Notes under the pieces: generated by a model
What the model saw: the letters and a program-made list of their open reading frames with translations, nothing else
What the model was told of the DNA's origin: nothing
Databases searched by the model: none
Source: a virus
DNA length: 64,000 bases
Direction: 5' to 3' (one strand)
IMG/VR virus record: IMGVR_UViG_3300032213_001070
Coordinates: 20,215 to 84,214 of that record
Made by a program: the position numbers and the translations under genes
Part shown: positions 8,801 through 44,034 of the stretch, piece after piece
Layout of the letters: every line of letters begins with the position of its first letter
Numbering within the stretch: the stretch's first letter is position 1

Positions 8801-8909
8801 TACTGACAAAGCAGCTATGGCAAAACAAATGGGTTATGGAGCATATGGAGGTCAGTTAAAGAAAGGTGGATTTGTGTATGCCGATGTTATCTATCCATTT
8901 ATACTATAA
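5850..8909 (+). CDS. Putative internal virion/cargo protein, 1019 aa
   Basis: ANLEAEGGETV...GPRHSEGGVPL N-terminal segment recalled from crAss-like virion proteins; GG motifs; one Cys cluster. Confidence 0.6.
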   Translation: MLRRVRIKKLPQAKTGYQVRGSLYNDVPSMGGGADYNAYIGEPHLKASKYITAVPREEANLEAEGGETVFGDINGDGMPEHKTIKGPRHSEGGVPLKLPDDSFIFSDTKSMKMKEPNFLAMFGKKTGSYTPAELAKQYDVERYRKILQDPNSDMLDKKTAELMLKNYTLKLGALALAQESKKGFPQGIPAVARPYMEAMGIKDEDVLPDQQITSTIKELDQQQKNNQRSAATMASPTEEQDEEYGDEAEEAQMMNSDRPVATPEPMEDEAAGMTPEEAEMQFGGMLSSDRAFAFQNGGWLPEEVAVFTGTVPYAEYGMAMGVNPQNYEGRKKHIHGATRFFQNGGNLPKAQGGIEVDITGMTPQQRDKALDEARTKNPGKEINVIENGKKKSAKYKKLKAQELTDIEGVDMKTFGNTPNSVAAAAQYKLLEKNLKDPKVMNKLYEETISSLKDKRSYVGKDGVQGKTWEERGNALPSPAEVRDQFLTHQKRNLSFRGQNIDPNLFTDTGAGLAPAAELIKRGAINPKTGKKITNEEEAKEAKEHMRQTYGGGRKGYTKDGEIIDVSIDEVSGKIGIPLEKDEKSRALQQATFHGYTHMAENKGNYDADTQYALKNFIPESLQAGVGDEISMGKGLFKNKGVQISPIDDFYKLDDEEYKSKAGNTTLGHLAGAGLEEYTFEDINEGPCECEDGSKPQRKEDGTCPCETKPKGEKPCPCEKSDGTKIDVGVNPNTGECNPCVEEQPVDIEQPAEWWLQDTIKTAGAFGDLMSIKKHMPWAPRVDLETPRPTFLDPTRELAANAEQANIQTQAAAQFAGPQALSARASSIQGTAAKNAADVLSKYNNANVNIANQFETQATNIRNQEQMMNQAGTQRLYDQNTVANQQFDNAKLAMRSNLRNQYTNAITNRAKTAALNDLYPQYAVSPATGGFNRFQNPKDFTGEKTSTTKTYDEWLKYYIDQGNTPEQASTNAKNAVNTQASSGGTTDKAAMAKQMGYGAYGGQLKKGGFVYADVIYPFIL

Positions 8910-8951: not shown

Positions 8952-8992
8952 CAACAAAGAAAAAACAAAACAACTTTTAAATACTTATAAAT

Positions 8993-12135: not shown

Positions 12136-15100
12136 ATGGCTGAAGAAACAAATATACCAGATGATGGAGTAAATGAGCTTTCACAAAAAAGTCCATTTAT
12201 TGCACCAGCTTCTATAGGAATGACTGAATATAAACCTATTACTCCTCCAGTACTTGATATTCATGATCTTAACTTAAAATCTAATATTGATAATCCAGCA
12301 TTAAGAGTTAAAGATACTACTACCGGATCTGCACCATATCATCCAAAAAGAGTTGATTCAAGTGATGCTCCTAAGTTTGGAGGTCTTGATGGAATATTTG
12401 CAAAAACAAAAGCTCAGTTAGTACAGAATGTAGATAATAAAGTATACAATAAAATGTACGCTTATGACTCTTCACCAAAAGGAGCACATAAAGCTAGGTA
12501 TAAAGCATATGGTCAAGAGACATATGATAAGATTGGTTTCTCACCGGAGATAGATAATGAAACATGGTTTAATGCAAACACAACCATGTATGATGATTGG
12601 AAGCGTATGGCTACCAATGCAGCATGGCCAATGATGAAACTTGGTTTTATTAGTCCTATAAAATCATATGGTAAACTTTTTGGTCAAGCTGATATAGGTC
12701 AGGACTTAGCAGAGGCTAGAGATTATGAAGAATACAATGCTATAGGTTATTCTACTAAAGGTGGTATAGGTGGATTTGCAATTAACTTGCAGAATTCAGC
12801 AGCATACTCTGTGGGTATAATCACTGAGTCTGTAGTTGAAGGAGCTCTTATTGGAGCTGCTGTAGGTGCAGTAGCAGGAGAAGGAATTGGAGCAGCCCCA
12901 GGAGCTGCACTTGGTGGTATATTTGAAGGTATATCAGCAATAGGAAGATTACCAAAGACTCTGTATCAAATGAGCAAGAATCTTGGTAAGATGACTATGA
13001 ATCTTAAAAAGCTTCAGAATCTTTCAGAGGTTAAGAATGTATTTGCAAATGCAGGTAGAACTATGGGGAATTTTGTAAATCCTTTTACAAATACCACAGA
13101 AGCTGCAATGAAATATGTATTTAAAAATCCTGATGATCTTACCAACTTAGCTAGAAGTGCAAGAACAGCTGGAGCTATGTGGCATGATGTAAAGAATATA
13201 AATGCTGCATTATCTGAAGGAAGACTTGAAGGAGGATTTACAGAACAAAGAGTATATGATGATCTCTATAACAAATACTATGATAAGTACGGAGTAGCTC
13301 CTACAGATGAGTTACAAAAAGATATGCGTAAGCAAGCAAAAGTAGCTGGATTCCAAAACACTTGGAAGAACACATTGCTTGTAAACTATAGTAATAAGAT
13401 AGCTTTCCCGTCAATCACTAGAGCAGGTTTTATGAAAGGTCTTCCAACCTTCAGTAAAACATTCGGAACAGTAGGACCTTATCAGTTAATATATGACCCG
13501 GCTAAGAAAGTTGCAAAAGAAGCTTACCGTATTGAAAAGGTATCTTTAAAGAATGCTGCTAAGTCATTAGTTAAACCAGCTACATATGGTAAAACTGCTC
13601 TTAATTACTTTAAGGCAAATCTAGTAGAAGGTTTTCAAGAGACTGCACAGGATGTATTGTCAAATGCAACAGAAGAGTATTACACAAACAGCTTTAAAAA
13701 TAAAGACCGACAGAACTTTGATTACTCAATGGCTACTCTTGGTTCAGCATTAAAGAAACAAATCAGTGCTCAAGGTGCTGAAACATTTGCTTCTGGATTT
13801 GCTATGGGTACCATACTTGGTATTCCCGGAGGAGTAAAAGAATATTTAAGTGTAGGATACAATAAGTATTTTAAGAACCGTGCTAACTATGATCAGTATG
13901 TTGCTGAAAGAGAAGGTGAAGCACAAAGCATTGTTGATGCATTAAATACAATGGACAAGAATGCTAAACACTTCTTTGATCCTAGACTTAATAATTATGT
14001 TAATCAGATGCTTGTAGGTAAAGTAGCTGATGACCCGGATAATGTTTCTGCTAAAGAAGCTAAAGATGCAAGCTTTGCAGGTTTTAAATCTGCTGTGAGA
14101 ACTGCATTAAGAACCGGTACCTTTGATATGTTCATTGATAACTTTCAAGGATACAAACAAGCTAGCCCAGAAGACATTGAAGCAGCATGGAGTCTAGAAC
14201 CTGGACAAGGTACAAAAGCATTAGAGTATATTGATAGTGCAACAAAGACTGCAAAAGATATTGCTTCTAGATGGCAATTCTCTAAAAATAAATTTAAAGA
14301 AGTTGTTAATCCAAATCAGTTTGCTGAAGATACGCCAGAGAGACAAATGGCTGATATTTATAATGAAGCTTACTTGACTGGATTAGACAATCTTGTATTT
14401 ATGGGCTCAGCATTTGATAATAACTCTGAGAGATTGTCAAAGATGTATACCAAGCTTTCTTCTTTATCTGCTATACAAAATTCAAGATTCTCAAACTTTG
14501 CAAACATTGTAGAGCCAGAAAAACTGCAGAAAGAGATTGCTATGCTCCGTACAGATGTAGAGTTAGGAAAAAATGCTACAACTCCAGAAGCAAAAGAACA
14601 GTATAAAAAACAAAAAGATTTATTAGAAAAACTAGAAAACTATCAATCACAACAGTTTGGAGCTACAGTACAGTTTCTTAAAAAACTAAGAGATACTCAG
14701 AAGAGTATAATGGAATCTGAGGAAGGTATTTCTGCAAGTGAAGCTCAACAAAAAGCTTTAGATCAAGTTGTTGAAGAGTATGATGAACAAGGATTAAATT
14801 CTTTTGAAGACTATAAAAATAGTTATAGAGAGTTACTAGACACTCTTGCTGGGTCAGAAGAAGACAAAGTAAAATTAAATAGAGAGTTAGATGATGCTGG
14901 AGGCTTTGATGAGTTTTTTCAAATGCTTATGGATTCATATCTACTTAGAAATGAAAATACTAACCTTAATAAGTTTATCAATCTATTGAATGATCCAAAA
15001 GGTTTCTATGAGCATGTTCAGAGAAACTTTGACTGGATGAAAAAGCTGTATGATAACAGACAAGACTATTATACTGATGTTGTAAATAATTCTATGTTGG

Positions 15101-18100
15101 CTATCCAGAGAAACAGTCTTTTGGAAGAGTTAGCTGAAAAAGGTATTTATGTAGACTTAGAAGAGTTTGCTGAATGGACAGAAGATAATAACAACCTACC
15201 AACTTACTTTATTGATCAGGTAAATAACAGAATCATAAACCAAGATAGTTATTTGTATGATCAGTACATACAACTATTTGTTGATGCTTCTCAGATTGAT
15301 AGTAAAAACCCACCGGTAAAGAAATCTGACAAAGATCAAAAGCTACAGAAGATAGTTGATGATTATAATGATCAAAGAGATGGTGAACTTGAAACTGTTA
15401 AGAATACATATGACCGCACATTAAAAGAACTAGTTGGATATACTCAGGAAGAGATTGATGAGATGATCAGTCAAGCAACAGCAGAGTCTGAGATGTCAGA
15501 AGATGATGTTAAAGATGAAGTTAAGCTTATAGAAAAAGCATTAAAGCAACTTGATTCAAATAATGTAGTTGAGATACAAGCAGTGTTTGATATTGCTGTA
15601 GACAAAAATATGTTTACCGCACAAGAGTATAATCTTAAAAAAGAAGATATATTCAGTGATGATGCTTTACTAGAAGAAATGCAAGCTATTTCAGAAAGAT
15701 TTACTGATGTAGATGAAGTAGAAGCACAAGATGCCGCAGCAAATGTAATGATCTTAAAACCATTACTTGAATCAAGACTTGAAGTATTAAATACATATGA
15801 TCAAACAAAAGGTCTAGAAGGTGTACCACAGTATGAAGACACAAAGCCATATGCTGACTATACTAAAGCTGTAGATGAGATAAACAAAAAGTATGACAAT
15901 CTTATTGATGAGGCTGAAGGTAGATTAGCTGCAGAAACAAGAGCTGATGTAGAGGCTAAGAGACCAGAAGCAATGAAGAAAACTATTAAGCAAATCAGAG
16001 ACTTAATAGAAACCAAAGAAGATATAGTTCAGACTAAGAGAAACTATATTGTAGATGGTGAGCTTCATGATAGAATGTCTAATAGAATCAAGACTGGATA
16101 TGATACTTATGGATACACCGGTGAATCTGATTTAGTTGATGTATATGATAGTACTATTGGTGCTGCTTTAGAAGGTACTGCTGATACTAAAGCTGATCTA
16201 GAAGCTCAGAAAGCTGATATAGAAAAACAGAAAGAAGTCTATAAAAAAATGACTAAAGGTACTCCCATTATTAAAGATAACATTAAAGGCACCAAGATAG
16301 GAGATAAATATGATGATAGATTAAAAGTGATAGTTATTGATGAAAGTTTAGCAGATAACTTTGATCCTAAAATTGCTGATGATAATGGACAAGGTTATGA
16401 GGTTATAAGTAAAATTAAAGAATATGGTGAGATGGAAAATGGTGTTCAGACAAAAGCACCAAAAGTTGAAATTATAATTTTTAACAATAAAGAAGATGCA
16501 AACGCCTTTTTTGAAGCAAGAAAAATTAAATTAGATAAAAATATAGCTGATGCAGAACTAGCTGCTTTAGAACAACCAACTCCTCCGGGAGTTCTTACTC
16601 AAAATGTCATTGATGCCTTTATAAAAGAACTAGTTGATGCAGACCTACCAGGAGTAAACACTAATAAGTTTACTGTAGATATAGTAAGAGATGAGTTAGA
16701 AACTTTAATAGCTCCTGAAGGAACTAGGCTGACTAAGAAAACTCAAAAACAAATTGATAGCTTAAACTCTCAATTAGCTGATGTTGAATCTAAGTTAGCT
16801 TCAGTAAAAGACAAGAAGAGATTAGCTACTCTTGAGAAGCAAAAGAAAAGACTTGAAGAAGTTATTAAGGATGAAGAGACTGGTAAATACCGGGAGCCTT
16901 TTGAAATGACAAATGATAACATTAAATCATTTGTACTCAACACAGTAAAAGAAAATGCATTTGAAGAATCAAGAGATGCCGGAAATATTCTAGATCCTAT
17001 GCTTAAAAACTTCTTAGATACTGAAACATCTAAGAAACCTGCATATGATCCTAAGCTTATGAGTAAGGAAGCATATGATAACTTATTTGATGATGAGACA
17101 GGCTACTTAACTAAGTTTAAAAAGATGGCAGATGCTGGTGAAATATATATTTTCACTAAGAATCTTTATGTACATTCTAACAATCTAGTAGATGAGAATG
17201 GTAAAAAGTTACCTCCAGTTGCTGGTGAGATTGATATGATTATAGTAGACCGCAAAGGTAGAGCTTTCATAGCAGACTTAAAGACCGGTAAAGTAGCTAA
17301 GTGGCTTAACTATAAAACAAGAGGTACTAAGTCATTTGAAAAACAAATAGAGAATACTATGCAACAAACCGGTTACTCTAACTTGTTAGAGAACATGGGT
17401 ACTACTGTTGATGGTATAATGATATTCCCGCTTGAGATTGGCTTTGATAGCAAAGGTTTTATCAAATCTGCTAATGCTCCTACTAATCCGTCATTGTTTG
17501 CTGGAGAAGAAGTTATTGGAGATGAAGGTACACTACCTTACACAATCCAATTAGACAAAGGAAACAACACACAGATCAAGAATGAAGAGACTGGGCAATA
17601 TGAGAATATATCTATTGATCAGTTTATGCAGAGATTGATTCCTGTAAAAGGTAAGAAGACTACACAAATAAAAACTAAACCGGCACCAACAGATGTAATT
17701 CCTGAAGAAGAAAGAGCACTTGCTGATGAGTTCATGCTTAAGATGGCTAATGCTAAAGAGTTTGATGACCTTACAGAAGTAGCATTGGAGCTTGATGAAA
17801 TGAAACCTAACTTAAGCAAAGAAACATATAACATGCTTAAGTATCAGTTGGATACTAGAATGTCAATGGATCTAAATATCCCTAATGATATTATTCTAAA
17901 TACCGATGAAATTTATATCTTTACACAGCCGGTAAAAGCCCTTAAAATAACTGAAGGATATAGAGTTAAAATTGATATGTTAGATCCTGAAACTCAAAAA
18001 GTTATAATATCAAGAGTAGGTCCCGGAAGAACAAGAAGTATTGAAATGAGTATTAAAGATTTTACAGAAAATACCATGACAGAAGAACAATTAAATAACC

Positions 18101-18288
18101 TTCCAAAAGAAGAACCTACATATCAACCTTCTCAAGAAGAGATAGATATGTTAAATGAAAGTCTTGAAAATACAAATGAAGGTTTATCTGAGTTTGAACA
18201 ACTTGCAAAGTTAGAGGCGGATGCATATGCAGAAGGTGTAACACTTGATTCTTTAGAAAACAATTTCCTTAATAATATTAAATGTTAA
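12136..18288 (+). CDS. Giant virion ejection protein, 2050 aa, with a Gly/Ala-rich membrane-like segment and a C-terminal PD-(D/E)XK nuclease domain
   Basis: GALIGAAVGAVAGEGIGAAPGAALGG at about 12841-12945; AGEIDMIIVD...IADLKTG at 17221-17290; only Cys is the last residue. Confidence 0.7.
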   Translation: MAEETNIPDDGVNELSQKSPFIAPASIGMTEYKPITPPVLDIHDLNLKSNIDNPALRVKDTTTGSAPYHPKRVDSSDAPKFGGLDGIFAKTKAQLVQNVDNKVYNKMYAYDSSPKGAHKARYKAYGQETYDKIGFSPEIDNETWFNANTTMYDDWKRMATNAAWPMMKLGFISPIKSYGKLFGQADIGQDLAEARDYEEYNAIGYSTKGGIGGFAINLQNSAAYSVGIITESVVEGALIGAAVGAVAGEGIGAAPGAALGGIFEGISAIGRLPKTLYQMSKNLGKMTMNLKKLQNLSEVKNVFANAGRTMGNFVNPFTNTTEAAMKYVFKNPDDLTNLARSARTAGAMWHDVKNINAALSEGRLEGGFTEQRVYDDLYNKYYDKYGVAPTDELQKDMRKQAKVAGFQNTWKNTLLVNYSNKIAFPSITRAGFMKGLPTFSKTFGTVGPYQLIYDPAKKVAKEAYRIEKVSLKNAAKSLVKPATYGKTALNYFKANLVEGFQETAQDVLSNATEEYYTNSFKNKDRQNFDYSMATLGSALKKQISAQGAETFASGFAMGTILGIPGGVKEYLSVGYNKYFKNRANYDQYVAEREGEAQSIVDALNTMDKNAKHFFDPRLNNYVNQMLVGKVADDPDNVSAKEAKDASFAGFKSAVRTALRTGTFDMFIDNFQGYKQASPEDIEAAWSLEPGQGTKALEYIDSATKTAKDIASRWQFSKNKFKEVVNPNQFAEDTPERQMADIYNEAYLTGLDNLVFMGSAFDNNSERLSKMYTKLSSLSAIQNSRFSNFANIVEPEKLQKEIAMLRTDVELGKNATTPEAKEQYKKQKDLLEKLENYQSQQFGATVQFLKKLRDTQKSIMESEEGISASEAQQKALDQVVEEYDEQGLNSFEDYKNSYRELLDTLAGSEEDKVKLNRELDDAGGFDEFFQMLMDSYLLRNENTNLNKFINLLNDPKGFYEHVQRNFDWMKKLYDNRQDYYTDVVNNSMLAIQRNSLLEELAEKGIYVDLEEFAEWTEDNNNLPTYFIDQVNNRIINQDSYLYDQYIQLFVDASQIDSKNPPVKKSDKDQKLQKIVDDYNDQRDGELETVKNTYDRTLKELVGYTQEEIDEMISQATAESEMSEDDVKDEVKLIEKALKQLDSNNVVEIQAVFDIAVDKNMFTAQEYNLKKEDIFSDDALLEEMQAISERFTDVDEVEAQDAAANVMILKPLLESRLEVLNTYDQTKGLEGVPQYEDTKPYADYTKAVDEINKKYDNLIDEAEGRLAAETRADVEAKRPEAMKKTIKQIRDLIETKEDIVQTKRNYIVDGELHDRMSNRIKTGYDTYGYTGESDLVDVYDSTIGAALEGTADTKADLEAQKADIEKQKEVYKKMTKGTPIIKDNIKGTKIGDKYDDRLKVIVIDESLADNFDPKIADDNGQGYEVISKIKEYGEMENGVQTKAPKVEIIIFNNKEDANAFFEARKIKLDKNIADAELAALEQPTPPGVLTQNVIDAFIKELVDADLPGVNTNKFTVDIVRDELETLIAPEGTRLTKKTQKQIDSLNSQLADVESKLASVKDKKRLATLEKQKKRLEEVIKDEETGKYREPFEMTNDNIKSFVLNTVKENAFEESRDAGNILDPMLKNFLDTETSKKPAYDPKLMSKEAYDNLFDDETGYLTKFKKMADAGEIYIFTKNLYVHSNNLVDENGKKLPPVAGEIDMIIVDRKGRAFIADLKTGKVAKWLNYKTRGTKSFEKQIENTMQQTGYSNLLENMGTTVDGIMIFPLEIGFDSKGFIKSANAPTNPSLFAGEEVIGDEGTLPYTIQLDKGNNTQIKNEETGQYENISIDQFMQRLIPVKGKKTTQIKTKPAPTDVIPEEERALADEFMLKMANAKEFDDLTEVALELDEMKPNLSKETYNMLKYQLDTRMSMDLNIPNDIILNTDEIYIFTQPVKALKITEGYRVKIDMLDPETQKVIISRVGPGRTRSIEMSIKDFTENTMTEEQLNNLPKEEPTYQPSQEEIDMLNESLENTNEGLSEFEQLAKLEADAYAEGVTLDSLENNFLNNIKC

Positions 18289-18292
18289 TTAG

Positions 18293-21200
18293 ATGATTAC
18301 TTGTCCAATTACCCGGCAGCCTCTTGAAGATTTTTACAAGTATGTATACCGTGCTATTAATGATAAATTAAAAGACAATAAGACATTTGATGTAAATCAA
18401 TTTATGGAAGATTTATTTAAAAAGTCTTCTGAAAAGTCTGATCCTGAAACTGCAGCTAAGTGGTTACAGAGTACCCCAAGAGTAATTAATCTAATTGTTA
18501 CTAAATCATTCAGTGATAAGATTCCTTTAGTTAAAGGTCTAGATGGCATCTATGGTTTAATGACTGACTTTTCTAAACCAGACGGAGAAGGTCTTAAGAA
18601 TGTACTAGCTAAGTATGTAAAGAAACAAGATGTAAAAGATCTTAAACCTGTGATAGCTCATCAGTTATCATTAGAGTTTAGTACTGAAGAAGATGAGCCG
18701 GAGGGAGAAGATATACCAAAGAATTCACCTTCAGTTACTGCAAGACTTAAATCTACAATTCCATTTTCCGGAACCTTACCATCATTTACACCAGTAGATC
18801 CAAAGCAAAAGTCAGATACTTATATAGAGAAACTAGATAAACCAAGAGCACAGATATTAACCAATCTAACCAGGTTAGCAAATGCTTTTAATTCTACTGA
18901 TCCTTTTTCTGATTTTGTTTATCAAAATAAAAAGATCAGAATAAAAGCTGTTAACCTATATGCATTCTCACAACAGAACTTTAATGATCTAGATCCTACT
19001 ACTCAGGAAGAGATAAGGCTATCTGGAGTTATGGTGGCTATAGGTAATGCACAAGCCAATGTTACTCAAGCTGACAAAAGAGTATTATTAGTTGTTACAG
19101 ATGATAGTGGTCAGAATCTTTACTTTGATGAAGAGGGTAATATAACCAACAAAGGCAATGGGAAACTATTGTATCAGTTTATGCGGGATGTTAGAAACAC
19201 AGCAAAAGGATATGTGGTTACTGATATCTATGGTAATGAAGAACAATTGATGCCTATTTCAGAGTATGTGGCAAAAAACTATAACTCTGAGATTGATGGA
19301 GATCTTAATACCTTTACTGAGAAGGTTAAAGACCAACGGGAGAAAGAACTTAAGAGACTGTTTGAATTACGGGAAAAAGCATTGGGGTCAGAAGTTATGT
19401 TAGAGTTTGAGGGCCTAACGGAGGGAGTATCATCTGAAGTTACTGCAACAAGGTTACCTCTATCTGATTTCTTAAAAATACCAGGTTCTACTAAAGCTAA
19501 CTTGAAGACAATTAGAACTCTTAAAAAAGCAGAGGGTAAGTTTTTTAAAGGTTATGCTGTAATAAATCTAAATGGAACAGAGTTTCAAGTTAGAAGATCA
19601 TCTATGCCTGATTCTGTAGCTGACCAAATTGCTGCAGTTATGTTTGATCCTAACATACCTTTTGAAACTAAAAAGGATTTTTACTCACAGTTTATTCCAG
19701 AAGATAGTGACACTAAACTGGCATATACTATGCGTAAGCATGAGATCATACCTGACATGGAGAAGAAGTCATTTAGAATTAAACTCTATGATCAAGTAGG
19801 AGAGAAAGAAGGGTTCATGACAAAGCCTACTCATGATTTTAAAATTTCTGAAGCTTCATTGAAAAAAGCTAGTGAAGAGTCATTAGCAAATGGTAGAAAA
19901 CTACTTAGTGATATATTTAAAACTGGTAGATCAAACGGTAAAGCTACATACATGTCATACAAATCTGATCTACTAAATAGTGAAGATTACCTTGTATATG
20001 ATACTCAGACAAAACAGATTGATGTTGCAAACTATATTAATTTCTTATCAGGACTAGATGGTTATGTAATGTTGGTTGATGGAGACCCAGGGTTTTATAA
20101 TAAAACATTACTCTTTAATGAACCTACAGAACTTTCTAAAGATTTAAAAGAACAACCAGAAGAAGAAGAAGACTGGTTTGATCAGCAAATAAGAGAAGCT
20201 AGAGAATTTGCTGAAAAGCAAAAAGCATTAGAAAATGCAAGCAAGACTCCTGTAGAGATAGAGTTTGACTTTATTATTGATAGAGCATTATCTCCAGAAT
20301 ACAAAGCTCAACTGGAGCAGCAAGGTGTAAAAGCAAAAAGTAATAATTACTATTATGCAGCTAGTCTCATCCAATCTATAAATACAGACAGAAGATATAG
20401 TAGAGAAGTAGCAGAACAACTCCGAGACATGCTCTCAGGTTATATTGGAGCTTTATCTGATGCACAGATAAAAACAATTAACTCAGCAATAAATGCTGCA
20501 TTTCCGCAACTTAGTACACCTGTACAAAATGCAGTTGATATAATACAGAAAACTATTGAGCCGGAGATGCCGGATCCAACTACTGGTATTATAGAACCAG
20601 GTAGCAATCTTACACAAGATGAGCAAGATACACTTGATGAATTTGGTTTATTCCGTGCAGGTTATATTGCTGATGAAATTGGAGCTAAGGATTTAAAGAA
20701 TGTACTTAACTGGTGGAACAAAACTAAGATAGGCAAAGAACTACAAAAGCATATTAAACTAGAGCATGCTTATAATCTAGCTAACTCAGATGTATTTGCA
20801 AAGTTTGTAGTTAGTGGTGCCACTCTTACCAATCCGGATATTAAAGCACAGATCCAGATTAATCCAAACAAAGGTACCTTGGTAGATATCTATCATGAGG
20901 CTTTCCATGCATTCACACAGTTATATCTTACCCGTCAAGAGAAATACAATCTTTATGATGAGGTAAAAAACTATACAGATGCTAATGGTAAAGAGCCATA
21001 TAAAAACTTTTCATATAAGGATATAGATGAACTTCTTGCTGAAGACTTCAGAACCTATATGAAAACTAATTATATCAAGAAAGGTTCTCCTGTAAGAAAT
21101 AGATTGTTTAGAAAGATCTTAAACTTTATCCGGGCTTTATTTGGTAAAAAACCAATCAATCCTACTGAAGTTGTTACAGAAACTATGAATGTTCCAGCTG

Positions 21201-27200: not shown

Positions 27201-29506
27201 TAAAATCTCTTGTAAGAGGTGGATTGTCTCCAACACCACAGAACCTAGCTATCTTGTTACATATGTTGCAATTAGAAAAGCAATTCAAAGGAATGGATGA
27301 GCTAGAAATGGCATTTAGTCCGGATACTGGATTACTTGATACTACATTACAAGTTAAAAAAAGAGATCAAGCTTTGAAATTATTCTCAGAAGGTTCTAAG
27401 ATTGATAAAGATTTCTTAAATAGATTAAGATATGATTCCATTCTATCATCATTCTACAAGAGTGATATGATAATGGATTTAGTAACACCATTATTCTCAT
27501 TAAGATTGAATGACCAAATATCAAACTTTATTGAGAAGAAGATTAATCTAAACAAAGATATCATAGCTCAAAAGTATGGCCCAGGAATTAAAGGTCAAGA
27601 GAGATTTATTAACATGTACAATAATGCAGTAGTAAATTACATCTTCCAAAACACTATGTCTAATTATCCTGATGAGTCTGGACAACCAGTTCTTATTCCA
27701 GATACAATACATACCTTTCCTGTTACTCAAGTAGAAAAAGGTCCTGCGGTTATATTAAATGAAAAAGGCTTTAGAGTAAATTTTAAAAAAGCTCAGGAAG
27801 ATTATAAAAACAAAATCTTCTTAACTACTAACAATACAGATGAGAGCTATGCTAAAACTGGTCAGGATGCATTTACTCCACGGGAGAATCCTTTCCCAAC
27901 ATTCTCAAGCTACTTAAAGTTCATTACAGAAAAAGAATATTTAAGCAGTATATACCCTGATCAGACTGATGTCTTTTTAACTCAGACAGCACTTATGAAT
28001 AACTTTAACCGTGCTTTTATTATGGGTACAACAAAGTATTCATATACTAATATGGTTATGGATATCATTAGTGAGTTTGAAGATCAAAACATAAAAGAAA
28101 ACTATCCGGTATTAGCTCAGCTAGCACCAGCTAAGTTTGTTAAAGATGTAAATGTTATTGAGTTAAATGATAAGGCAACAGCCAAAGGAGTTATTGCAGA
28201 AGATTATTATAAGAATCTAAAACAATTAGCGGATCCAACAGTAAGAAAAGTTACCTATACAGATAAGACTAAACAAAAACAAGATAACCAAAGAATAACT
28301 GATGTATTCAAGGACTTCTCACTGCTTATGTTTTATCAACATGGTACAGGATATTCTAGATTAGGTTTTGGAAAAGTATTAGATCCAGAATCTTTTGTAA
28401 AAAAAATGCAGTATGCTTCTAATGCTTTCTTGAATAACAATCTATCAGAAGAAACATTTGAAAGAATCTATAACAGATTCATTACTAAGTCACAGTTTAA
28501 AGATTATACTATTGACCCAAGTAATCCAGATGCTTTTGAATCTTCAGAAGATATACTAAGTGAATTCTCTGAAGAAGACTTGATAGAAATGGGATTACTA
28601 CAACCAGGACAAAAACCTACTCAACCATCTACTAGTATTAAACCTTCTGATTTTACTAATCATTCTGGTGGTGCATATGGAGGGGATACTTTCTGGGATA
28701 TTATTGGTAGAGAATTTGGAGTTACTAATCATAAACACTATAAAGATGCGGGTAATCCTAATTTATCTCAAAAATTAAGAAATGCAGGTGTTAAAGCTAC
28801 AATTCTTACTAAAGAACAGATGGATACTGCAAGAATTGAGGTGGAAAAATTACTTGGAGAAAAATATCCTGATACTTTACAAGGAAACTTACAAGTAAGA
28901 AATTATTATCAAGTAGCTAATGCAGATGCTGTATTTGCTGTTGCTGAAATAGATTCTGGTACAAAGCCTGGAGTTTTTGGTGGAACAAATACTGCTGTTC
29001 AATTAGGTATAAAACTAGGTAAACCTGTATATGTATTTGATTTAGATACCAAGAAATGGTATACACAAGATACAGAGTATCTTGAAACTGGTTATGATAA
29101 AACTAAACATGAATGGAATTACAATGGTTGGATAGAAATACCTACACCTACTCTTACTAAAAACTTTGCTGGTGTAGGATCAAGAGATATTGAATCTTAT
29201 AATGTACAAAAGGATGGTAAATGGGTGCCAAGAGATAAATACAAAGGTAAAGAAACTGAAGAAGCTGCTAAACAAGCTATTAGAGATGTATATACTAATA
29301 CATTTGCAACTCCTACCACTCAACCTACAGCTATTCAGACTGCTGCAGCAACACCGTTAGATAAAATAAATGAATTTTATAACAGTCTTACTCAGGAACA
29401 AAAAGATAAATTAGGTAACTTAGATGACTTGATTGCTGAGTATAATGATGTTCCGTTTGACTATCCGGTAGAAGATTATATTGAAAGTATTAAATGTAAG
29501 TTATAA
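18293..29506 (+). CDS. Virion-packaged two-barrel RNA polymerase, 3737 aa, with zincin-like and C-terminal SLOG-like domains
   Basis: RIPT...AGSDFDVDK (DFDVD at 25865-25879) matches the crAss-like RNAP catalytic loop; HEAFH at 20894-20908 with a downstream E(LLAE); HSGGAYGGD...GGT...FAGVGSR near the C-terminus. Confidence 0.85.
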   Translation: MITCPITRQPLEDFYKYVYRAINDKLKDNKTFDVNQFMEDLFKKSSEKSDPETAAKWLQSTPRVINLIVTKSFSDKIPLVKGLDGIYGLMTDFSKPDGEGLKNVLAKYVKKQDVKDLKPVIAHQLSLEFSTEEDEPEGEDIPKNSPSVTARLKSTIPFSGTLPSFTPVDPKQKSDTYIEKLDKPRAQILTNLTRLANAFNSTDPFSDFVYQNKKIRIKAVNLYAFSQQNFNDLDPTTQEEIRLSGVMVAIGNAQANVTQADKRVLLVVTDDSGQNLYFDEEGNITNKGNGKLLYQFMRDVRNTAKGYVVTDIYGNEEQLMPISEYVAKNYNSEIDGDLNTFTEKVKDQREKELKRLFELREKALGSEVMLEFEGLTEGVSSEVTATRLPLSDFLKIPGSTKANLKTIRTLKKAEGKFFKGYAVINLNGTEFQVRRSSMPDSVADQIAAVMFDPNIPFETKKDFYSQFIPEDSDTKLAYTMRKHEIIPDMEKKSFRIKLYDQVGEKEGFMTKPTHDFKISEASLKKASEESLANGRKLLSDIFKTGRSNGKATYMSYKSDLLNSEDYLVYDTQTKQIDVANYINFLSGLDGYVMLVDGDPGFYNKTLLFNEPTELSKDLKEQPEEEEDWFDQQIREAREFAEKQKALENASKTPVEIEFDFIIDRALSPEYKAQLEQQGVKAKSNNYYYAASLIQSINTDRRYSREVAEQLRDMLSGYIGALSDAQIKTINSAINAAFPQLSTPVQNAVDIIQKTIEPEMPDPTTGIIEPGSNLTQDEQDTLDEFGLFRAGYIADEIGAKDLKNVLNWWNKTKIGKELQKHIKLEHAYNLANSDVFAKFVVSGATLTNPDIKAQIQINPNKGTLVDIYHEAFHAFTQLYLTRQEKYNLYDEVKNYTDANGKEPYKNFSYKDIDELLAEDFRTYMKTNYIKKGSPVRNRLFRKILNFIRALFGKKPINPTEVVTETMNVPAVRELFENLNYSSNKKSFVRKYQANISNVDWFELDRGISKLNRPTDTALSTQDSQLISDSMDMIISDIVDDYYKARLKTGKVTKSGTIGLLLDPEKRHGTYKIIEKRLQKKLDEFKTKLHSQPGIAPFSEIKNLEDIQENAVAVLKSAKGEDKYVFLKSQIDGFDNLNPEIKKGTRIKGESWRGIKIVGDFYSHKSIKKDKTPVSILVVSSLEDARQQFENYVAGGAKEYTDFEEKDVPDYMLSAEQELLLDNVRILQAALDNYGDPEWELKGIPPTGTIAFHLQNSDFELSKTKYELDKSLLNEENEEEDDQEKDQSRDSETPFGGEASNKKSLLQLASKEVIYILKSLSKVNREGEVSYNRLGFKERADFRKVWNIVTKTIGGLRDRVDAYDKLMEEAKNFSEIAQLIETKLPDPKAISSIFEQGVSNSFWQTFAKPSVKYWQFTVFPQYESVTNELTGESENIITSYESEVTQSSIEVDSTVRKFEALFKSSLANDYIEKNSANQSQLKLANLVKGFEDKSNPGQLDKNRSFEFAAALGIKLDDLPVIRKSLETKSDYYGLPYIYDIAKDFLAIQSAEKKIGQQEEFLNKFISNPIGTLRGEIPKGVLKTFKKEVTEKNILKRLAELQSQYGYDSANPGVLLPDGNRVFENVNHSEVTVTVDALNRVTKLSDLWESDEFGYMDHLKPGKSFFTLRSKVFGALFDMSKNTSEENLFDKKSNRSLELIQTAGTQIADVEGVNTSDLDKAGKFMQEFHTFLLNGVAEFIRHAEKKSAFGIRQVGGKQKVIVNGITNGVDQSLYIDMNKFIKPGETQLSPGEIVAVGGYFLDYIAVEFDRIRYFKQNPNVLETIKGYNREIKDEQGNVIARAGELFTVFDNILRDKTKKDLYKLTSDPALDLPTYVRNNQELFLKIQTDITDYFNEKLESLTKEYVDNLNFMDEKLYEKAGILEKDRKGGLATEPLVKAYLYNSWIHKFEMFNIFNGDASQFNHDKQEVQKRAPGSTSDGDAFLNDKYMHKFINSVLNNKTYAKALAKELGRDDLDKFVSNGKLNTGVIADAERKSVYLDEMLGAWEEKYRKDLTPIIKNKTELEKAISKKLAKDAKAYKEMKESDGAAFVTFDAYRILKIQGNSWAPAQEELYQKIIAGEEVDPLKVKEFFSIYKLHYYGAIANSPIAATAMHKFAVAPIIPSLATKGTQLYNLHVKMLENNLQYVTFGSGSKVSTLTTTGSFDNIFADANQKAVSMDAPIKTNQIHIEYLKDVTKVATKLKKEISYPTQKRVLLLDGLFNVGEAINKTSGEIASNYKAAVDNYTEVLTLDLLNKIGYEFDKNTGSYVGKLDKFIELIRDELGAKEVPDHLIKLLDTTLAGNLTMDFSIHPEADTLEKVIVNRIQKSVITQKTKGESMVQAPSTFYNGVWDTAFERDEAIKKNDELIKKFLGSNVLPFYRTGFDEKGNRIATQAMKVAIPFNGDFLNLLNLKHPDGEPIGNRDRLNDLIKNDAWLNENKDLITIAGPRIPTDAANTMEFAEVWHFIDPAQGNTVIVPTEIVAKAGSDFDVDKIYFMMPNINSKGELVKAPAESMEDLKALVDKSNKASKKERKEKGLMNPQALIDQYKKAAQNKLIESTKAILSLPDNYASLTKPNNTYLVEDEVEFYDTYARGYNNKLNAHQEGVRMNGKDEVMSPSRIFDEDYNLSVHESNLSGSLPLGIMAKKNKVHSLFKSIGALMPKSYRATVWNDETKRYDELEAEYDVVINMKHNKTRNAKGQEVVSLSNENNVDGEKIGDIFSHGLQGLLDRAKNPFPFKLQIVKEALSTINHLIEAGVSVPETFAFVNNPWIVKYIEYQMRFGGSTSKFMSIPILKHQVKAAAMKQTIDDMISAGGTSMKKFISELVNIANQKRLADTVTMLKKQEKSKKYNYMLEGIDVPFTATVEDMVFKKGFQLNKIALLKEVDPTKGFDKQKVVFSKSKSITNNDNFYYAAQAAWQKTFGNTYANESELKSLVRGGLSPTPQNLAILLHMLQLEKQFKGMDELEMAFSPDTGLLDTTLQVKKRDQALKLFSEGSKIDKDFLNRLRYDSILSSFYKSDMIMDLVTPLFSLRLNDQISNFIEKKINLNKDIIAQKYGPGIKGQERFINMYNNAVVNYIFQNTMSNYPDESGQPVLIPDTIHTFPVTQVEKGPAVILNEKGFRVNFKKAQEDYKNKIFLTTNNTDESYAKTGQDAFTPRENPFPTFSSYLKFITEKEYLSSIYPDQTDVFLTQTALMNNFNRAFIMGTTKYSYTNMVMDIISEFEDQNIKENYPVLAQLAPAKFVKDVNVIELNDKATAKGVIAEDYYKNLKQLADPTVRKVTYTDKTKQKQDNQRITDVFKDFSLLMFYQHGTGYSRLGFGKVLDPESFVKKMQYASNAFLNNNLSEETFERIYNRFITKSQFKDYTIDPSNPDAFESSEDILSEFSEEDLIEMGLLQPGQKPTQPSTSIKPSDFTNHSGGAYGGDTFWDIIGREFGVTNHKHYKDAGNPNLSQKLRNAGVKATILTKEQMDTARIEVEKLLGEKYPDTLQGNLQVRNYYQVANADAVFAVAEIDSGTKPGVFGGTNTAVQLGIKLGKPVYVFDLDTKKWYTQDTEYLETGYDKTKHEWNYNGWIEIPTPTLTKNFAGVGSRDIESYNVQKDGKWVPRDKYKGKETEEAAKQAIRDVYTNTFATPTTQPTAIQTAAATPLDKINEFYNSLTQEQKDKLGNLDDLIAEYNDVPFDYPVEDYIESIKCKL

Positions 29507-30432
29507 TGAGTTGTATTAATAAGGCAGATAAAGCATATAAAGCTCTCCAAAATGTTTATGGAGATGCACTGGCAGAAGCTTTTGTACGGGCTCATCCTTT
29601 TAATAAAGGTAAGTCTGAAGATATAAACTTTGATATACCTAGTAAAAAGGAAGTTAAAGATTGGCTTACTGAACAAAAACAAAACATACCAAAGAATATT
29701 AAGAGAGCCTTAGAACTTAACCCATATCTTTCTGAGACTGCACTTAAAAGCATGCTTAAAGGTGTTGTTAGTACATTTAAAGACAGAATGTTTATAACTA
29801 CAGGTTGGTTGTTTTCCGGATCCAGTGCATTAGGTCAAGAGGTATTTGAAACTATCTATAAGCCTAACATGGCTGTTATGAATAATCTAGCAGACAACTA
29901 CCCGGATATCTTCAGATTAATCCCTACTAAGAATGCATATACAACTATGGTTGAAATAACACCAAGAGTTAAAGCAGAAGAAGAGGCAGAAGAAGGTGAG
30001 GTTCTAGAAGATGATGAACTTAAAACAGATGAGCCTGCAATAGTTGAAAGCATAAGAACATACAGGTCAATTGTAGATAATAACAATGGCCGTAAACCTA
30101 TAGAGTTTATGGCTGGTGACTTAAAGTGGCAGTTAAACAATAAAGGTTTATACAATCTTGTAGATAAGTTTACTAATGCTGTATATGTTAGAAATATAAA
30201 TTTAGAAACTGGTGAAATGATTCCTGAAGTATTACCAGAGACCCCGGTAGATGAAGCAAAAAGAGATAGAATCTTTAGATCAGTTATGCAAATGATTAAA
30301 GAACAAAAACTAGATGAGTATCTTGCTGTAAAAGGTATTGACACTGCAGATATATATGAAGCTTTAAGAGATGCTGAAACTGATAATGATTTGAATAAAG
30401 TTATAGAAACAATATTAAAAGCAGTATGTTAA
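29506..30432 (+). CDS. Virion cargo cluster protein, 308 aa, with Cys only at residues 3 and 308
   Basis: Overlaps both neighbours (TAATG, ATGTTAA). Confidence 0.65.
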   Translation: MSCINKADKAYKALQNVYGDALAEAFVRAHPFNKGKSEDINFDIPSKKEVKDWLTEQKQNIPKNIKRALELNPYLSETALKSMLKGVVSTFKDRMFITTGWLFSGSSALGQEVFETIYKPNMAVMNNLADNYPDIFRLIPTKNAYTTMVEITPRVKAEEEAEEGEVLEDDELKTDEPAIVESIRTYRSIVDNNNGRKPIEFMAGDLKWQLNNKGLYNLVDKFTNAVYVRNINLETGEMIPEVLPETPVDEAKRDRIFRSVMQMIKEQKLDEYLAVKGIDTADIYEALRDAETDNDLNKVIETILKAVC

Positions 30433-33400
30433 GTTGTCCTAGAAAAAATAGTAGAGAGTGGCAAGCTATTCTTGCAGAAACTCACGGTAATGAGGAAGAG
30501 GCTCAAAGACTATGGGTTGAAAGAGAGTTTGATACTAATCCTGATCTTAATGAAGTAGTTAAAGATGAGAACTATGAGGATGAAAGACAAGGTGAACCAG
30601 GGCAGGAAGAGCTAGAACCTAATGATGATTTTTCTAGATTAATACAGAGAATCAAGATATATATCAATAGACAGATTGAGATTCTTAACAGTAAGAAAAT
30701 TGCTAATAAAAAGTATAAGCAATCTAAACTTAAAAAACTTCTTACTGAGATGGAGGCATTAGAAGGTGTAGCATCTATAAATATATTTGTAAAAGATGCT
30801 TATGATAAATCTCTACAGGTAAGAGCTAGAATGAATAAGCTACTTGCTAATAAAGGTAAGATGTCTTCTAAAGAGGTAATGATTGAGCTTACCGGATTAA
30901 ATGATTTTGCAAATAGCTACTCTATATTAGATGAGATTGACTCAGCTGATATTTTAAATTACTTTACCACAGCTTCAGAACAAGAAATGATGGGTCCAAT
31001 AACTCCACAAAAAATGTTAACGGATGCTATTTCAATAAGACAAAAGGTAAAAGAAAAAGTAATTACTCAGGGTATACCTTTATTAGCAGAGTTCTTAGTA
31101 GAATACAAATCTACTTTACAAGATACTACTATTGCAGATACTGTTGCTGCTCTTGAAAAAGAAATAGAAGATATACAGAATAATGCTAAGATGCCAGATG
31201 AGAAAAAAGAAAAGCTCATCAAAGAAAAACAAGATAGGATTAAAACATTTGAGACATTTGATGTTGACCAAGCTTCTATTGAAAAGATACTTAAAGAAGC
31301 ATCAAGTGATATTGGTGTGCTTGATTTCTTAATCTCCCCTCTTATTACATCTTCTGACAGTGCATTAGCATTATTTGCTAAAGCAATCAAGAGCCAGTTA
31401 GAATTTGCTAGACAAAAAGATATTAAAGTCAGAGACAGTTTGGTAAAAGCTTTTGAAAAATATAGAGCTGTTGCCCCGGCAAGTTCTGATAATACTGCAA
31501 AGTTTAATGAAGGTATCTATGAGGAAGTAGATATACCTATCTATGATGAAAAGGATGAGATATCCGGCTATAGAAAAGAAGTTCAGTTTGTACAGAAGTA
31601 TGACATGAGTAAATTTAATAAAGCCAGAAGTGAGTTCTTTAAACAACTTGGTGCTTTACCAAAACCTGTAGGAGAAAAACCTACTAAAGAAGAGAAAGCC
31701 AAAAGCAAAGCTTGGTGGGAGGCTAGAAATAAATGGTATAAAGAAAATACTCAACCTAGACCAAAAGCAGAAAGAGATGCTATAATTCTTCAGATGCAGA
31801 CTGATAGAGACAATAAACTCATTAGTCAAGAAGATTATGAAAAATGGGAAAGAAAAAACATTAGAGAATACAAAGGTGAAGTGACTTACTTTGAAGATTT
31901 AGCTGTACCTGCAGATAAATATAAAAGTGATAAATGGAATGCCATGTATGATTCTAATGATGTTGCAAAGAATGAGAAAGGTAGATATCATGCTGAGTTA
32001 CTTAGAATATATCAAGAAGCTCAGGATAAATTACCAGAATCACAACAACCAGGATTCAGAGTACCATCTGTATCTAAGTCTGACTTAGAAAGATTAATGC
32101 AGAACGGTATCAAAGATTTAATAAAAACTAATGTTAGTGAAGCAGTTAGACTTCAGTCATGGGATACAGAGTTTGCATTAGGAACTTTATCAGAAGAAGA
32201 TGCTAAGTTCTTACCGGTATACTATAATCAACCCATAGATGCAAAAGATGTAACATTAGATTTAGCTTCTTCAGTATTGTTATTTAGTGCAATGGCAAAT
32301 AAATATGAGGCACTTAACAATGTAAATGCTGAGATATCTTTAATGAAAACTATTGTTGGTGCCCGCAGTGTACCTGTTACAAATAGTAAAGGACAAGCTG
32401 TACTAGATGCTTTTGCTAACAAGCTAGGTTATGAGGAGTACATCCGGCAGAATGGAGAATCTTATTCTAAAAAACACTTGAATGCATTTATAGATATGGT
32501 TATCTATGGTGAAATGCAAAAAGCTGAAGAAATCTTTGGTGGTTTATCACTTACTAAGATTACTAATACTGCTATGTCTTATTCAGCTATCACAACTATT
32601 GCTGCTGACTTGCTTAAAGGTGTAGCTAATAACCTACAGGGAAACATTCAAGTACTTATAGAAGCGGTAGGTGGTCAGTTCTTTAACCGCGCCAACTTAA
32701 GAAGAGGTAAATCTTTTCTAGCAAAAAATCTACCTAGTATATTAGGAGACTTTGGTAAACCTGCACCAACAAGTTTAGTTGGAAAACTAGTAGAGAAGTA
32801 TGATCCTATGCAAGGTAACTTCAAAGATAACTATGGTAAAAAGATAAGTATGGGTGTAGCTAATAAACTTTTCCGTACAGATACATTATTCTTTAACCAG
32901 CACTTTGGGGAATATGAGATTCAAGTATCTACTATGTTAGCTTTATTTGATAATATCAAAGTACTAGATACTCAAACTAATGAAGAGATAACTTTACTAC
33001 AAGCCTATAATATCTATGGTGCTGATGAAGCACAAAGCAAAATAAAAATTGCTAAAATGGATAGCAAAGGTCAACCGGTTACAGATGACCAAGGTAATCA
33101 GGTATATGTACCATTTGGAGAAACCCAGAGACAAGATATACAAAATAGACTACATGGATTAAACAAATACATGCATGGTGTCTATAATGACTTTGACAAA
33201 GGCACATTACAAAAGTATTCATTAGGTAGACTAGCAATCATGTGGAGAAAGCATGTTGTTCCTGGATATAAAAGAAGATTTAAAAGAGTATCCATGGACC
33301 ATGAAATTGGGACACCAACAGAAGGATACTATAGAACTTTTATTATGACAATGAGATCAGATCTTAAACAGTATAAATATAATATTATTAAGAACTGGTC

Positions 33401-33857
33401 AACTTATACACCATTTCAAAAAGCTCAGATTTCAAAAGTACTTACTGAGATAAGTATAATCTTAGCACTAACAACATTAGGGTTTGTATTAACTAGATTG
33501 CTGGTTAATCCTGATGATGATGAAAGAGATCCAATCCAAAATAACTATGCTTATAACTTTTTACTTTATGAGACATTAAGGATGAGATCTGAGACTGCAT
33601 CTTATATTAATCCTATAGATGCTATCCGTGTAATGAGATCACCATCAGCTATGACAAGTACTATAGATAGACTTATTAAGTTTGTCAATCAAGTATTACC
33701 TTGGAATATAACTGAAGAATATAAAAGAGAATCAGGTGTGTGGAATAAAGGAGATAATAAAGCTTGGGCTGCATTTGTAAAACTAATGGGTATCTCAGGT
33801 TATAATATGGATCCTGAACAAGCATACAAATCATTTGAGGCAAGTTTCTTTAAATAA
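30426..33857 (+). CDS. Giant virion ejection protein, 1143 aa, with a C-terminal hydrophobic helix
   Basis: Last large gene of the RNAP cluster; ISIILALTTLGFVLTRLLV at 33450-33506; only Cys is residue 4. Confidence 0.7.
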   Translation: MLSCPRKNSREWQAILAETHGNEEEAQRLWVEREFDTNPDLNEVVKDENYEDERQGEPGQEELEPNDDFSRLIQRIKIYINRQIEILNSKKIANKKYKQSKLKKLLTEMEALEGVASINIFVKDAYDKSLQVRARMNKLLANKGKMSSKEVMIELTGLNDFANSYSILDEIDSADILNYFTTASEQEMMGPITPQKMLTDAISIRQKVKEKVITQGIPLLAEFLVEYKSTLQDTTIADTVAALEKEIEDIQNNAKMPDEKKEKLIKEKQDRIKTFETFDVDQASIEKILKEASSDIGVLDFLISPLITSSDSALALFAKAIKSQLEFARQKDIKVRDSLVKAFEKYRAVAPASSDNTAKFNEGIYEEVDIPIYDEKDEISGYRKEVQFVQKYDMSKFNKARSEFFKQLGALPKPVGEKPTKEEKAKSKAWWEARNKWYKENTQPRPKAERDAIILQMQTDRDNKLISQEDYEKWERKNIREYKGEVTYFEDLAVPADKYKSDKWNAMYDSNDVAKNEKGRYHAELLRIYQEAQDKLPESQQPGFRVPSVSKSDLERLMQNGIKDLIKTNVSEAVRLQSWDTEFALGTLSEEDAKFLPVYYNQPIDAKDVTLDLASSVLLFSAMANKYEALNNVNAEISLMKTIVGARSVPVTNSKGQAVLDAFANKLGYEEYIRQNGESYSKKHLNAFIDMVIYGEMQKAEEIFGGLSLTKITNTAMSYSAITTIAADLLKGVANNLQGNIQVLIEAVGGQFFNRANLRRGKSFLAKNLPSILGDFGKPAPTSLVGKLVEKYDPMQGNFKDNYGKKISMGVANKLFRTDTLFFNQHFGEYEIQVSTMLALFDNIKVLDTQTNEEITLLQAYNIYGADEAQSKIKIAKMDSKGQPVTDDQGNQVYVPFGETQRQDIQNRLHGLNKYMHGVYNDFDKGTLQKYSLGRLAIMWRKHVVPGYKRRFKRVSMDHEIGTPTEGYYRTFIMTMRSDLKQYKYNIIKNWSTYTPFQKAQISKVLTEISIILALTTLGFVLTRLLVNPDDDERDPIQNNYAYNFLLYETLRMRSETASYINPIDAIRVMRSPSAMTSTIDRLIKFVNQVLPWNITEEYKRESGVWNKGDNKAWAAFVKLMGISGYNMDPEQAYKSFEASFFK

Positions 33858-43737: not shown

Positions 43738-44034
43738 ATCCATTGCAACATTTGCAAGTCTCTTATCACTAAACTTAAAGTAAGTAGTAAGGTGACCAAA
43801 TGCAATATGAAGCAATTCATGTTTTAATATACCAAGCCTCTGTTCTTCATTAAGACCTTCCCAAAAATCAGGATTAATAGCAAGCTGATAATTAATACCA
43901 TTCTTACTAACTCCGGCAGTAGGAACTCTCTTAGCATCCCATAGCTTATTCAACATGATGAGAAAGAACCCATAATAAGGTTCCTTCAACATTAGGTCTT
44001 TACTAGCTTTACTTAAACTCTGAACTTTGTCCAT
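43738..44034 (-). CDS. Exon 1 of the metallopeptidase-VWA protein
   Basis: HELLH zinc motif; the ORF stops at the intron's first TAA right after ANVAMD. Confidence 0.85.

Follow-up and report, generated by a model that had tools for sequence, protein, structure and literature searches.

Crassviruses are the most abundant human gut viruses, and how about 0.8 MDa of protein, including an RNA polymerase (RNAP), is packed and delivered through the tail is an open question. The question arises in a particular form in a stretch of 64,000 nucleotides (nt) from the virus record IMGVR_UViG_3300032213_001070 (the window, meaning this whole stretch), where four consecutive plus-strand genes are, judged by homology, the virion RNAP (vRNAP) cargo module of Crassvirales, comprising a gp47-like protein, the vRNAP, a coupler of 308 amino acids (aa) and a gp49-like protein. 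Why do these proteins lack cysteine (Cys) everywhere except beside the breaks between their genes? An earlier note on positions 12136-33857 of the window (the original prediction) had proposed that disulfides, or else a metal bridge or ligation, join the four proteins into a chain in gene order. The proposed chain members, with the open reading frame (ORF) calls and other evidence on which each rests, including AlphaFold2 (AF2) models, are the following:

12136..18288, plus strand: chain member 1, gp47-like cargo protein, 2050 aa (ORF call and Cys count)
18293..29506, plus strand: chain member 2, vRNAP, 3737 aa (ORF call and Cys count; BLASTP)
29506..30432, plus strand: chain member 3, two-ended coupler, 308 aa (ORF call and Cys count; BLASTP of halves; AF2)
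30426..33857, plus strand: chain member 4, gp49-like protein, 1143 aa (tblastn and BLASTP; invariant C4)

Together the four proteins amount to 7238 aa (~821 kDa), and translation revealed exactly six Cys among them, all located ≤4 residues from the three internal gene breaks. The sole Cys of the 2050-aa protein is its last residue, C2050 (codon 18283-18285, ..NFLNNIKC*, the asterisk denoting the stop codon), and there is no N-terminal Cys. The 3737-aa vRNAP contains only C4 (18302-18304, MITCP) and C3735 (29495-29497, ..IESIKCKL*), the 308-aa coupler only C3 (29512-29514, MSCINK) and C308 (30427-30429, ..ILKAVC*), and the 1143-aa gp49-like protein only C4 (30435-30437, MLSCPRKNSREW; MLSCP), with no Cys at its C-terminus. 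The minus-strand replication genes in the same window contain ~1.2% Cys, a frequency at which ~87 Cys would be expected in 7238 aa compared with the 6 observed, and the chance that six randomly placed Cys would all sit ≤4 residues from the six internal termini is ~1e-15. Re-translation reproduced every coordinate of the pairing across three junctions that had been claimed originally, and the accompanying observation that the first protein lacks an N-terminal Cys and the last protein a C-terminal Cys was found to hold in the window and in every reference case too. At the DNA level the paired Cys codons are arranged as follows:

18283..18304, plus strand: junction 1, TGT TAA TTAG ATG ATT ACT TGT (C* / MITC), spacer of 4 nt
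29495..29514, plus strand: junction 2, TGT AAG TTA TAATG AGT TGT (CKL* / MSC), stop/start overlap TAATG
30427..30437, plus strand: junction 3, A TGT TAA GT TGT (C* / MLSC), 7-nt overlap ATGTTAA

The proposal that these are crAss-like ejected or packaged RNAP proteins was confirmed by a DFDVD motif and by homology to phiCrAss001 gp47, gp50 and gp49 and to phi14:2. Residues 1592-1801 of the 2050-aa protein matched residues 1691-1911 of phiCrAss001 gp47 (BLASTP, E 4e-8), the 3737-aa protein matched both the phi14:2 vRNAP and phiCrAss001 gp50 (BLASTP), and the 1143-aa protein matched phiCrAss001 gp49 (E 5e-55) and phi14:2 gp076 (E 3e-47; tblastn and BLASTP). The phi14:2 protein gp077 is the crystallised RNAP (PDB 6VR4). 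Two motifs of the 3737-aa protein could be placed by alignment:

25865..25879, plus strand: DFDVD catalytic motif of the two-barrel RNAP (residues 2525-2529, GSDFDVDK)
20894..20908, plus strand: zincin-like HEAFH motif in the N-terminal part of the vRNAP (residues 868-872), aligning with YHEAFH at 2157 of phiCrAss001 gp47

The GSDFDVDK context at residue 2525 aligned with DFDID at 1361 in phi14:2 and with position 1483 in phiCrAss001 gp50. The cultured modules, phi14:2 gp65-gp66-gp67 (GenBank gp078/077/076, gp66 being the protein of PDB 6VR4) and phiCrAss001 gp47/gp50/gp49, are homologous to that of the window and share with it the DFDxD and zincin motifs and the terminal-Cys rule, but they have three members whereas the window has four, with the coupler lying between the vRNAP and the gp49-like protein. 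In phiCrAss001 the capsid cargo includes gp47, gp49 and gp50, and inter-protein disulfides hold the tail together (PMC10172136). The RNAP of phi14:2 undergoes translocation into the host, and both neighbouring proteins are part of the virion (bioRxiv 10.1101/2020.03.07.982082). The window also has the crassvirus layout, with plus-strand giant genes followed by minus-strand PolB, primase, DnaB-like helicase and exonuclease genes, and its GC skew switches sign at ~34 kb. Searches of the four proteins against PHROGs, Pfam and PDB sequences identified no family except for a DprA-like stretch. The 2050-aa protein had no match in a phage collection by tblastn, the gp49-like family profile had none in the PDB, and Foldseek with a model of the 1143-aa protein (predicted local distance difference test score, pLDDT, of 72) gave none at E ≤0.001.

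The junctions were surveyed at 75 loci that a gp49-like family profile retrieved from IMG/VR, a junction being taken as the boundary between consecutive Cys-poor ORFs, and the context for more distant homologues was drawn from IMG/VR and GenBank phage records only. Cys was present on both sides of 75 of the 79 distinct junctions; the remaining 4 had no Cys and all lay beyond the end of the chain, and there was no junction with Cys on one side only. The rule was kept in reference or cultured crassviruses belonging to three families (phi14:2, phiCrAss001, DAC15, crAss002, p-crAssphage ZA and cr1_1). The phi14:2 ends read ..TIC* / MAC..ECK* / MSC.., while in phiCrAss001 gp47 ends ..RCNS*, gp50 begins MSKRC and ends ..ICGANTLYEL*, and gp49 begins MAKKC... 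C-terminal and N-terminal Cys are equal in number in each of the genomes examined. Conservation of the terminal pairing, which the original prediction had named as its computational test, was observed across crAss-like RNAP clusters split into two, three, four or five genes. An apparent exception, a cr116_1 protein that has a C-terminal Cys but none at its own N-terminus, turned out to come from an intron-split vRNAP gene. In this genome (L028, NC_055882, positions 14700-15600) the vRNAP is annotated as the separate coding sequences gp051, gp050 and gp049. The first of these ends ..GSDFD/KSYVEIKMC*, the second encodes a LAGLIDADG-type endonuclease and the last opens with M/VDKEYLM; it looks as though an endonuclease-bearing intron has inserted exactly inside the catalytic DFDVD motif.

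The same residues are conserved within each protein family. Relatives at ~70% identity keep all six Cys, and at this level those of the 2050-aa protein keep ..FKC*. All 41 full-length homologues of the 308-aa protein (41/41, down to 44% identity) contain only C3 and the C-terminal Cys, there is no inner Cys in the 12,476 residues of this family, and its best-conserved parts are MSCINK and ..LLKALC*. Members of the gp49-like family (down to 22% identity) start with M-x(1-3)-C in 98/98 cases, placing the Cys within the first 8 residues, and have a Cys within the last 10 residues in 0/98; other Cys make up 0.02% of 112,567 residues, and C4 of the 1143-aa protein is an invariant column across 43 sequences. 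The vRNAP orthologues of 3500-4900 aa have exactly two Cys, one at positions 3-5 and the other at the last residue. Among 51 representatives of ≥700 aa, 73 Cys are terminal and 7 are inner (115,745 residues).

At each junction the C-terminus of the upstream protein is a short amphipathic helix closed by that protein's only C-terminal Cys (the C-box), and the downstream protein opens with M-x(1-3)-C ahead of a conserved stretch (the N-box). The Cys codons might have been a by-product of nucleotide-level signals at the junctions, such as the ATGTTAA overlap or translational coupling, and indeed at 25/75 distinct junctions the C-terminal TGT overlaps the next start (ATGTTAA), which forces a Cys if the next protein begins ML. 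The other 50 junctions differ in spacing, but both Cys are kept, and the same C-box retains its Cys at gaps of 0, +1 and +18 nt. Spacers range overall from -10 to +561 nt, with partner genes lying 140-561 nt apart in p-crAssphage, crAss002 and the locus L024, and in phiCrAss001 and DAC15 the gp47 gene is on the strand opposite gp50/gp49 with the terminal Cys kept. Terminal Cys are encoded by both codons (46 TGT and 11 TGC, n=57), and the overlap offers no explanation for the downstream Cys at codon 3-5. Given the opposite strands, the variable spacers and the use of both codons, the reading as a junction DNA motif was rejected, and we assign it practically no probability.

Gene fission and fusion provided a further comparison. 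In some phages the three module proteins form one fusion (bioRxiv 10.1101/2020.03.07.982082). In the gp47+vRNAP fusions of cr1_1 (4551 aa, with YHEAFH at 2001 and DFDxD at 3445) and of locus L023 (4685 aa), Cys is absent from residue 1 up to the C-terminal region, hence also at and near the fusion point, and in cr1_1 the YHEAFH motif lies inside the unbroken Cys-free stretch. The vRNAP+gp49 fusions of p-crAssphage and crAss002 retain one junction and one Cys pair. Loss of the junction Cys in fused genes, as anticipated originally, was therefore seen in both kinds of fusion. The break points themselves are non-orthologous: phiCrAss001 gp47 has the zincin motif 185 residues ahead of its break, and in the window the motif comes 868 residues past the break. 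Because HEAFH aligns with gp47 YHEAFH at 2157, the first break falls before the zincin motif in the window and after it in phiCrAss001, and more generally before the zincin domain in the window and after it in the cultured modules of phi14:2 and phiCrAss001. No fused form of the 2050-aa protein turned up when longer proteins were searched.

In the 308-aa coupler an N-terminal domain (residues 1-158, with MSCINK at its start) is joined to a C-terminal domain (175-308) by an acidic linker (159-174), and the AF2 model (pLDDT 77) likewise has two domains with this linker disordered. Its last 60 residues were modelled as a small three-helix bundle whose final helix ends in the Cys; with the coupler model, Foldseek and VIA-align matched nothing but generic three-helix bundles, at residues 246-308 (best Z 6.5), and led to no fold assignment. 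When 1.8 billion representative proteins were searched with a profile, the two halves emerged as separate modules, with residues 1-160 matching the N-termini of 800-2800-aa proteins that begin MxC[IV]N and residues 175-308 matching the very ends of vRNAP orthologues of 3500-4900 aa, which terminate in ..K[LI]C*. The extra break that creates the coupler in this lineage brings its own extra Cys pair. Since the pattern tracks fission and fusion, non-orthologous breaks and the extra pair of the coupler, Cys marks each place where the polypeptide is interrupted, the pair standing as if it replaced the missing peptide bond.

Comparison of the N- and C-terminal regions across proteins with hhalign found only the short boxes to be shared, of ~25 residues at the N-end and ~20 at the C-end, and no common domain among the different N- or C-terminal regions. 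The C-boxes and N-boxes co-occur in classes that look like addressed connectors, for example:

..K[LI][IL]C* with ML.CP[IN]K.S.EW
..YIE.[IL]KCKL* with M[SAG]C[IV]NK
..KLKECY* with M[SA]C[VI]NPN
..YKKSC* with M[AP]C[IK]..IKE
..CGG* with M[PA]C[RK]I[QE]I

Several classes can be combined in one genome. At one locus (L061, IMGVR_UViG_3300024346_004772) at least three successive junctions lie downstream of the vRNAP, where the ORFs are 2268+, 762, 300 and 1152 aa long. Each of these junctions uses a different C-box/N-box class, giving three classes in series, and together with the gp47-like protein they imply a five-member chain. If the ends do form such a connector set, the 308-aa protein would be nothing but a connector, consisting solely of one N-end and one C-end. 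A split intein or other trans-splicing system was rejected as an origin of the terminal Cys: with these only 0-3 residues away from the C-terminus, or 3-5 from the N-terminus, intein fragments of tens of residues would not fit, and there were no Pfam hits.

Short conserved boxes in co-occurring classes, together with the small three-helix bundle predicted for the last 60 residues of the coupler, would also be expected of docking peptides that act non-covalently, in the manner of polyketide synthases (PKS), with the Cys serving as a packing residue or as half of a bridging metal site (Zn, Fe or Cu). The Cys is, however, the only invariant residue common to all box classes, and no conserved His, Asp or second Cys was found beside either terminal Cys in the box alignments. 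The lack of a conserved His or second Cys nearby argues against a metal site, for which two thiolates would be too few to form a stable tetrahedral arrangement, and the identical signature in the cyanophage A4 described below is a disulfide. We consider non-covalent docking or metal bridging improbable.

The terminal Cys could instead serve something other than the neighbouring cargo protein, such as another part of the virion (the portal, the capsid interior or the DNA end), a modification or a processing signal. Many disulfides link structural proteins of phiCrAss001, in which the cargo is unresolved, so that other partners are possible. Such partners would not account for the balance of N- and C-terminal Cys, for a first protein that never has an N-terminal Cys and a last protein that never has a C-terminal one, for the count of 0/79 one-sided junctions, or for the disappearance of the Cys at fusion points, and we regard this explanation as very unlikely.

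A precedent for a disulfide is provided by cyanophage A4 (Anabaena phage A-4L, a cyanopodophage), in which consecutive ejection-protein genes have the same sole-Cys signature as the window. Cryo-electron microscopy showed that the C-terminal helix of A4 gp27 inserts into a cleft of gp26, where it is fixed by a Cys1715-Cys5 disulfide (PMC12002296; gp26 is PDB 9k3a). The A4 genome record gives gp27 as 1717 aa with its sole Cys at 1715 and gp26 as 1114 aa with its sole Cys at 5. The same sole-Cys pair is present in Pf-WMP3 and Pf-WMP4 (L105 and L106; ~26% identity to A4), as ..NCL* / MPLNC and ..PCGL* / MNISC. In the one system with a known structure the signature is a real virion disulfide, and by analogy the same may apply to the crassvirus module. 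The two systems differ in that A4 has a single link, no RNA polymerase and proteins arranged in a pentameric pre-ejectosome ring, whereas crassviruses would have two to four links in series, with the vRNAP among the linked proteins. Moreover, the A4 study treats the disulfide as a local stabiliser, not as a general rule (PMC12002296). BLASTP of A4 gp26 and gp27 against the window proteins gave no match at E <0.01, and the Foldseek search with the 1143-aa model (pLDDT 72) did not list 9k3a. In view of this absence of sequence or Foldseek similarity, A4 is treated as an analogue and not a homologue, although a distant relationship is possible. The Pf-WMP3 and Pf-WMP4 homologues of gp27 and gp26 are annotated as 'ParB-like partition nuclease' and 'tail fiber protein; host specificity'.

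Because of the A4 precedent with the same signature, a disulfide is the most likely chemistry. We propose, and regard as probable, that in the virion the helix at the end of each protein docks on the N-terminal region of its successor, with an intermolecular disulfide between the two Cys. In the assembled extracellular particle the C-box helix would dock and the terminal Cys pair would become oxidised to a disulfide, yielding a linear thread of ~821 kDa in the order gp47-like protein, vRNAP, coupler and gp49-like protein. The near-total lack of other Cys would keep this thread free of wrong cross-links. With each link only a few residues from the termini, the branch it creates would be tiny, so that the chain could fit through a narrow channel in partly unfolded, string-like form, and the reducing host cytoplasm would then open the links and free the polymerase. 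Ordered pull-through of the tail and reductive release in the cytoplasm are plausible extensions of the disulfide model. The disulfide-linked chain in gene order that had been predicted is accordingly favoured in part: the comparative tests (pairing across splits and Cys loss in fusions) speak for it, and its chemistry has an analogue in A4.

The same comparative data would be expected if the Cys pairs linked the proteins purely for assembly, ensuring co-packaging and a fixed stoichiometry or position, with no ordered ejection or redox release. The A4 disulfide is described as stabilising the pre-ejectosome architecture and not as a pulling device, and fused forms of the module exist that are thought to be cleaved, such that a permanent connection after entry may be unnecessary. 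On the other hand, placement of the Cys 0-8 residues from the termini, combined with a linear order, corresponds to the needs of a threadable chain and goes beyond those of a co-packaging tether. A purely assembly or stoichiometric role is unlikely in our estimate, yet it is the main alternative to the disulfide-linked thread; metal or non-covalent docking, other partners and a DNA artefact are progressively less likely.

Several observations weigh against the disulfide-linked thread. There is no direct evidence of a disulfide between cargo proteins in any crassvirus, the phiCrAss001 maps having left the cargo unseen. Virions are assembled in a reducing cytoplasm, and the anoxic gut is home to many of the hosts. 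Neither the window nor the 84-kb record yielded a thioredoxin or any other redox enzyme; for an Erv-type oxidase this negative is uninformative, as the Erv control search matched nothing. Exclusion of Cys is relaxed in several gut lineages, where IAS virus, cr116_1, p-crAssphage and crAss002 have 6-10 inner Cys, and in phiCrAss001 gp50 the C-terminal Cys sits 8 residues short of the end. Co-occurrence of C-boxes and N-boxes may partly reflect physical linkage or shared descent instead of co-adaptation. Finally, some link proteins have the same box class at both ends (e.g. P0147, P0153 and P0190), indicating that class alone does not always set the order.

The broadest form of the disulfide-linked thread is one in which portable cognate connector ends, with several classes used in series, allow a thread of >7000 residues including the vRNAP to be encoded as two to five genes, stitched together by disulfides, threaded through the tail and cut by the reducing cytoplasm, constituting a redox-cleavable polyprotein. 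We advance this composite picture tentatively, as a possibility that we are somewhat inclined to doubt. Its claimed novelty held for crassviruses, for which no prior description was found, but not in general, since the single A4 gp27-gp26 link has been published (PMC12002296). A literature search of incomplete coverage returned no description of terminal Cys in crassvirus cargo, and the searched copies of the phiCrAss001 atlas (PMC10172136) and the phi14:2 RNAP preprint contained no mention of these terminal Cys or of a disulfide between cargo proteins. What is new relative to A4 is a proposed multi-link chain that extends across the order, includes a virion RNAP and tracks gene fission and fusion. 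The window's own contribution is a chain of four members, with a coupler composed only of two connector ends and a first break that falls on the opposite side of the zincin domain.

Individual features of the crassvirus module resemble those of other known systems. The giant ejection proteins of Schitoviridae (N4 gp50 vRNAP and DEV gp71-73) show strong suppression of Cys, which has been explained by passage through the oxidising periplasm (PMC11445570). They have essentially no Cys, termini included, in contrast to the window, where strong selection maintains one Cys at every terminus that faces a neighbour; the four window proteins depart from the Cys-free pattern in having no inner Cys but six conserved terminal ones. 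If the proposed chain is correct, a covalent, ordered and redox-cleavable connection would explain the fixed stoichiometry, the ejection order and the avoidance of Cys, and also the free splitting and fusing of the module in evolution. In PKS and non-ribosomal peptide synthetases, docking domains, which are short terminal peptides on separate polypeptides, set the subunit order non-covalently; the likeness lies in the several cognate C-box/N-box classes observed here, and no homology is claimed. The cognate ends described here could find use as natural, orthogonal tags for coupling proteins. Von Willebrand factor and gel-forming mucins are linear disulfide homopolymers joined through terminal Cys-rich domains in the oxidising secretory pathway, whereas the window encodes different proteins, each junction end bearing a single Cys on an otherwise Cys-free chain.

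The survey also drew attention to several gene annotations. In CrAssphage ZA (L012, MK238400, ~9624-9690) and crAss002 (L013, NC_055828, ~8979-9075), the annotated start of the fused RNAP lies 21 and 32 codons, respectively, upstream of a conserved MSC, and the true N-termini are probably MSCGNIK.. in ZA and MSCTPSN.. in crAss002. In IAS virus (L026, KJ003983, 8502-17484) the gp50-like gene consists of two overlapping ORFs of 837 and 2159 aa; the record contains ambiguous bases, and the split is probably a sequencing or frameshift problem. About 10 inner Cys are tolerated in this lineage.

Three other features of the window were recorded. Near the C-terminus of the vRNAP there is a domain that matched a PHROGs family:

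28649..29089, plus strand: DprA/SLOG-like domain (residues 3453-3599; phrog_768, E 3e-8)

In this segment, orthologues that are 30-35% identical elsewhere share 59-61% identity (P0231 and P0184), and because of this difference the DprA/SLOG-like segment is, as judged from these alignments, under much stronger constraint than the remainder of the vRNAP. Upstream of the chain, a late protein of 1019 aa (5850-8909, plus strand) has eight Cys, arranged as three CxC and one CxxC within residues 687-739, and the CxC clusters are similar in relatives (L001 and L004); the cluster could form a metal-binding knuckle, with the protein belonging to the tail or the cargo. Lastly, a 99-aa ORF at 43735-44034 on the minus strand corresponds to only the N-terminal part of a DUF2201-type metallopeptidase domain and adjoins an HNH-endonuclease-like ORF at 42421-43446, also on the minus strand, an arrangement that fits the intron-split metallopeptidase gene suggested in a first-stage note on this DNA.

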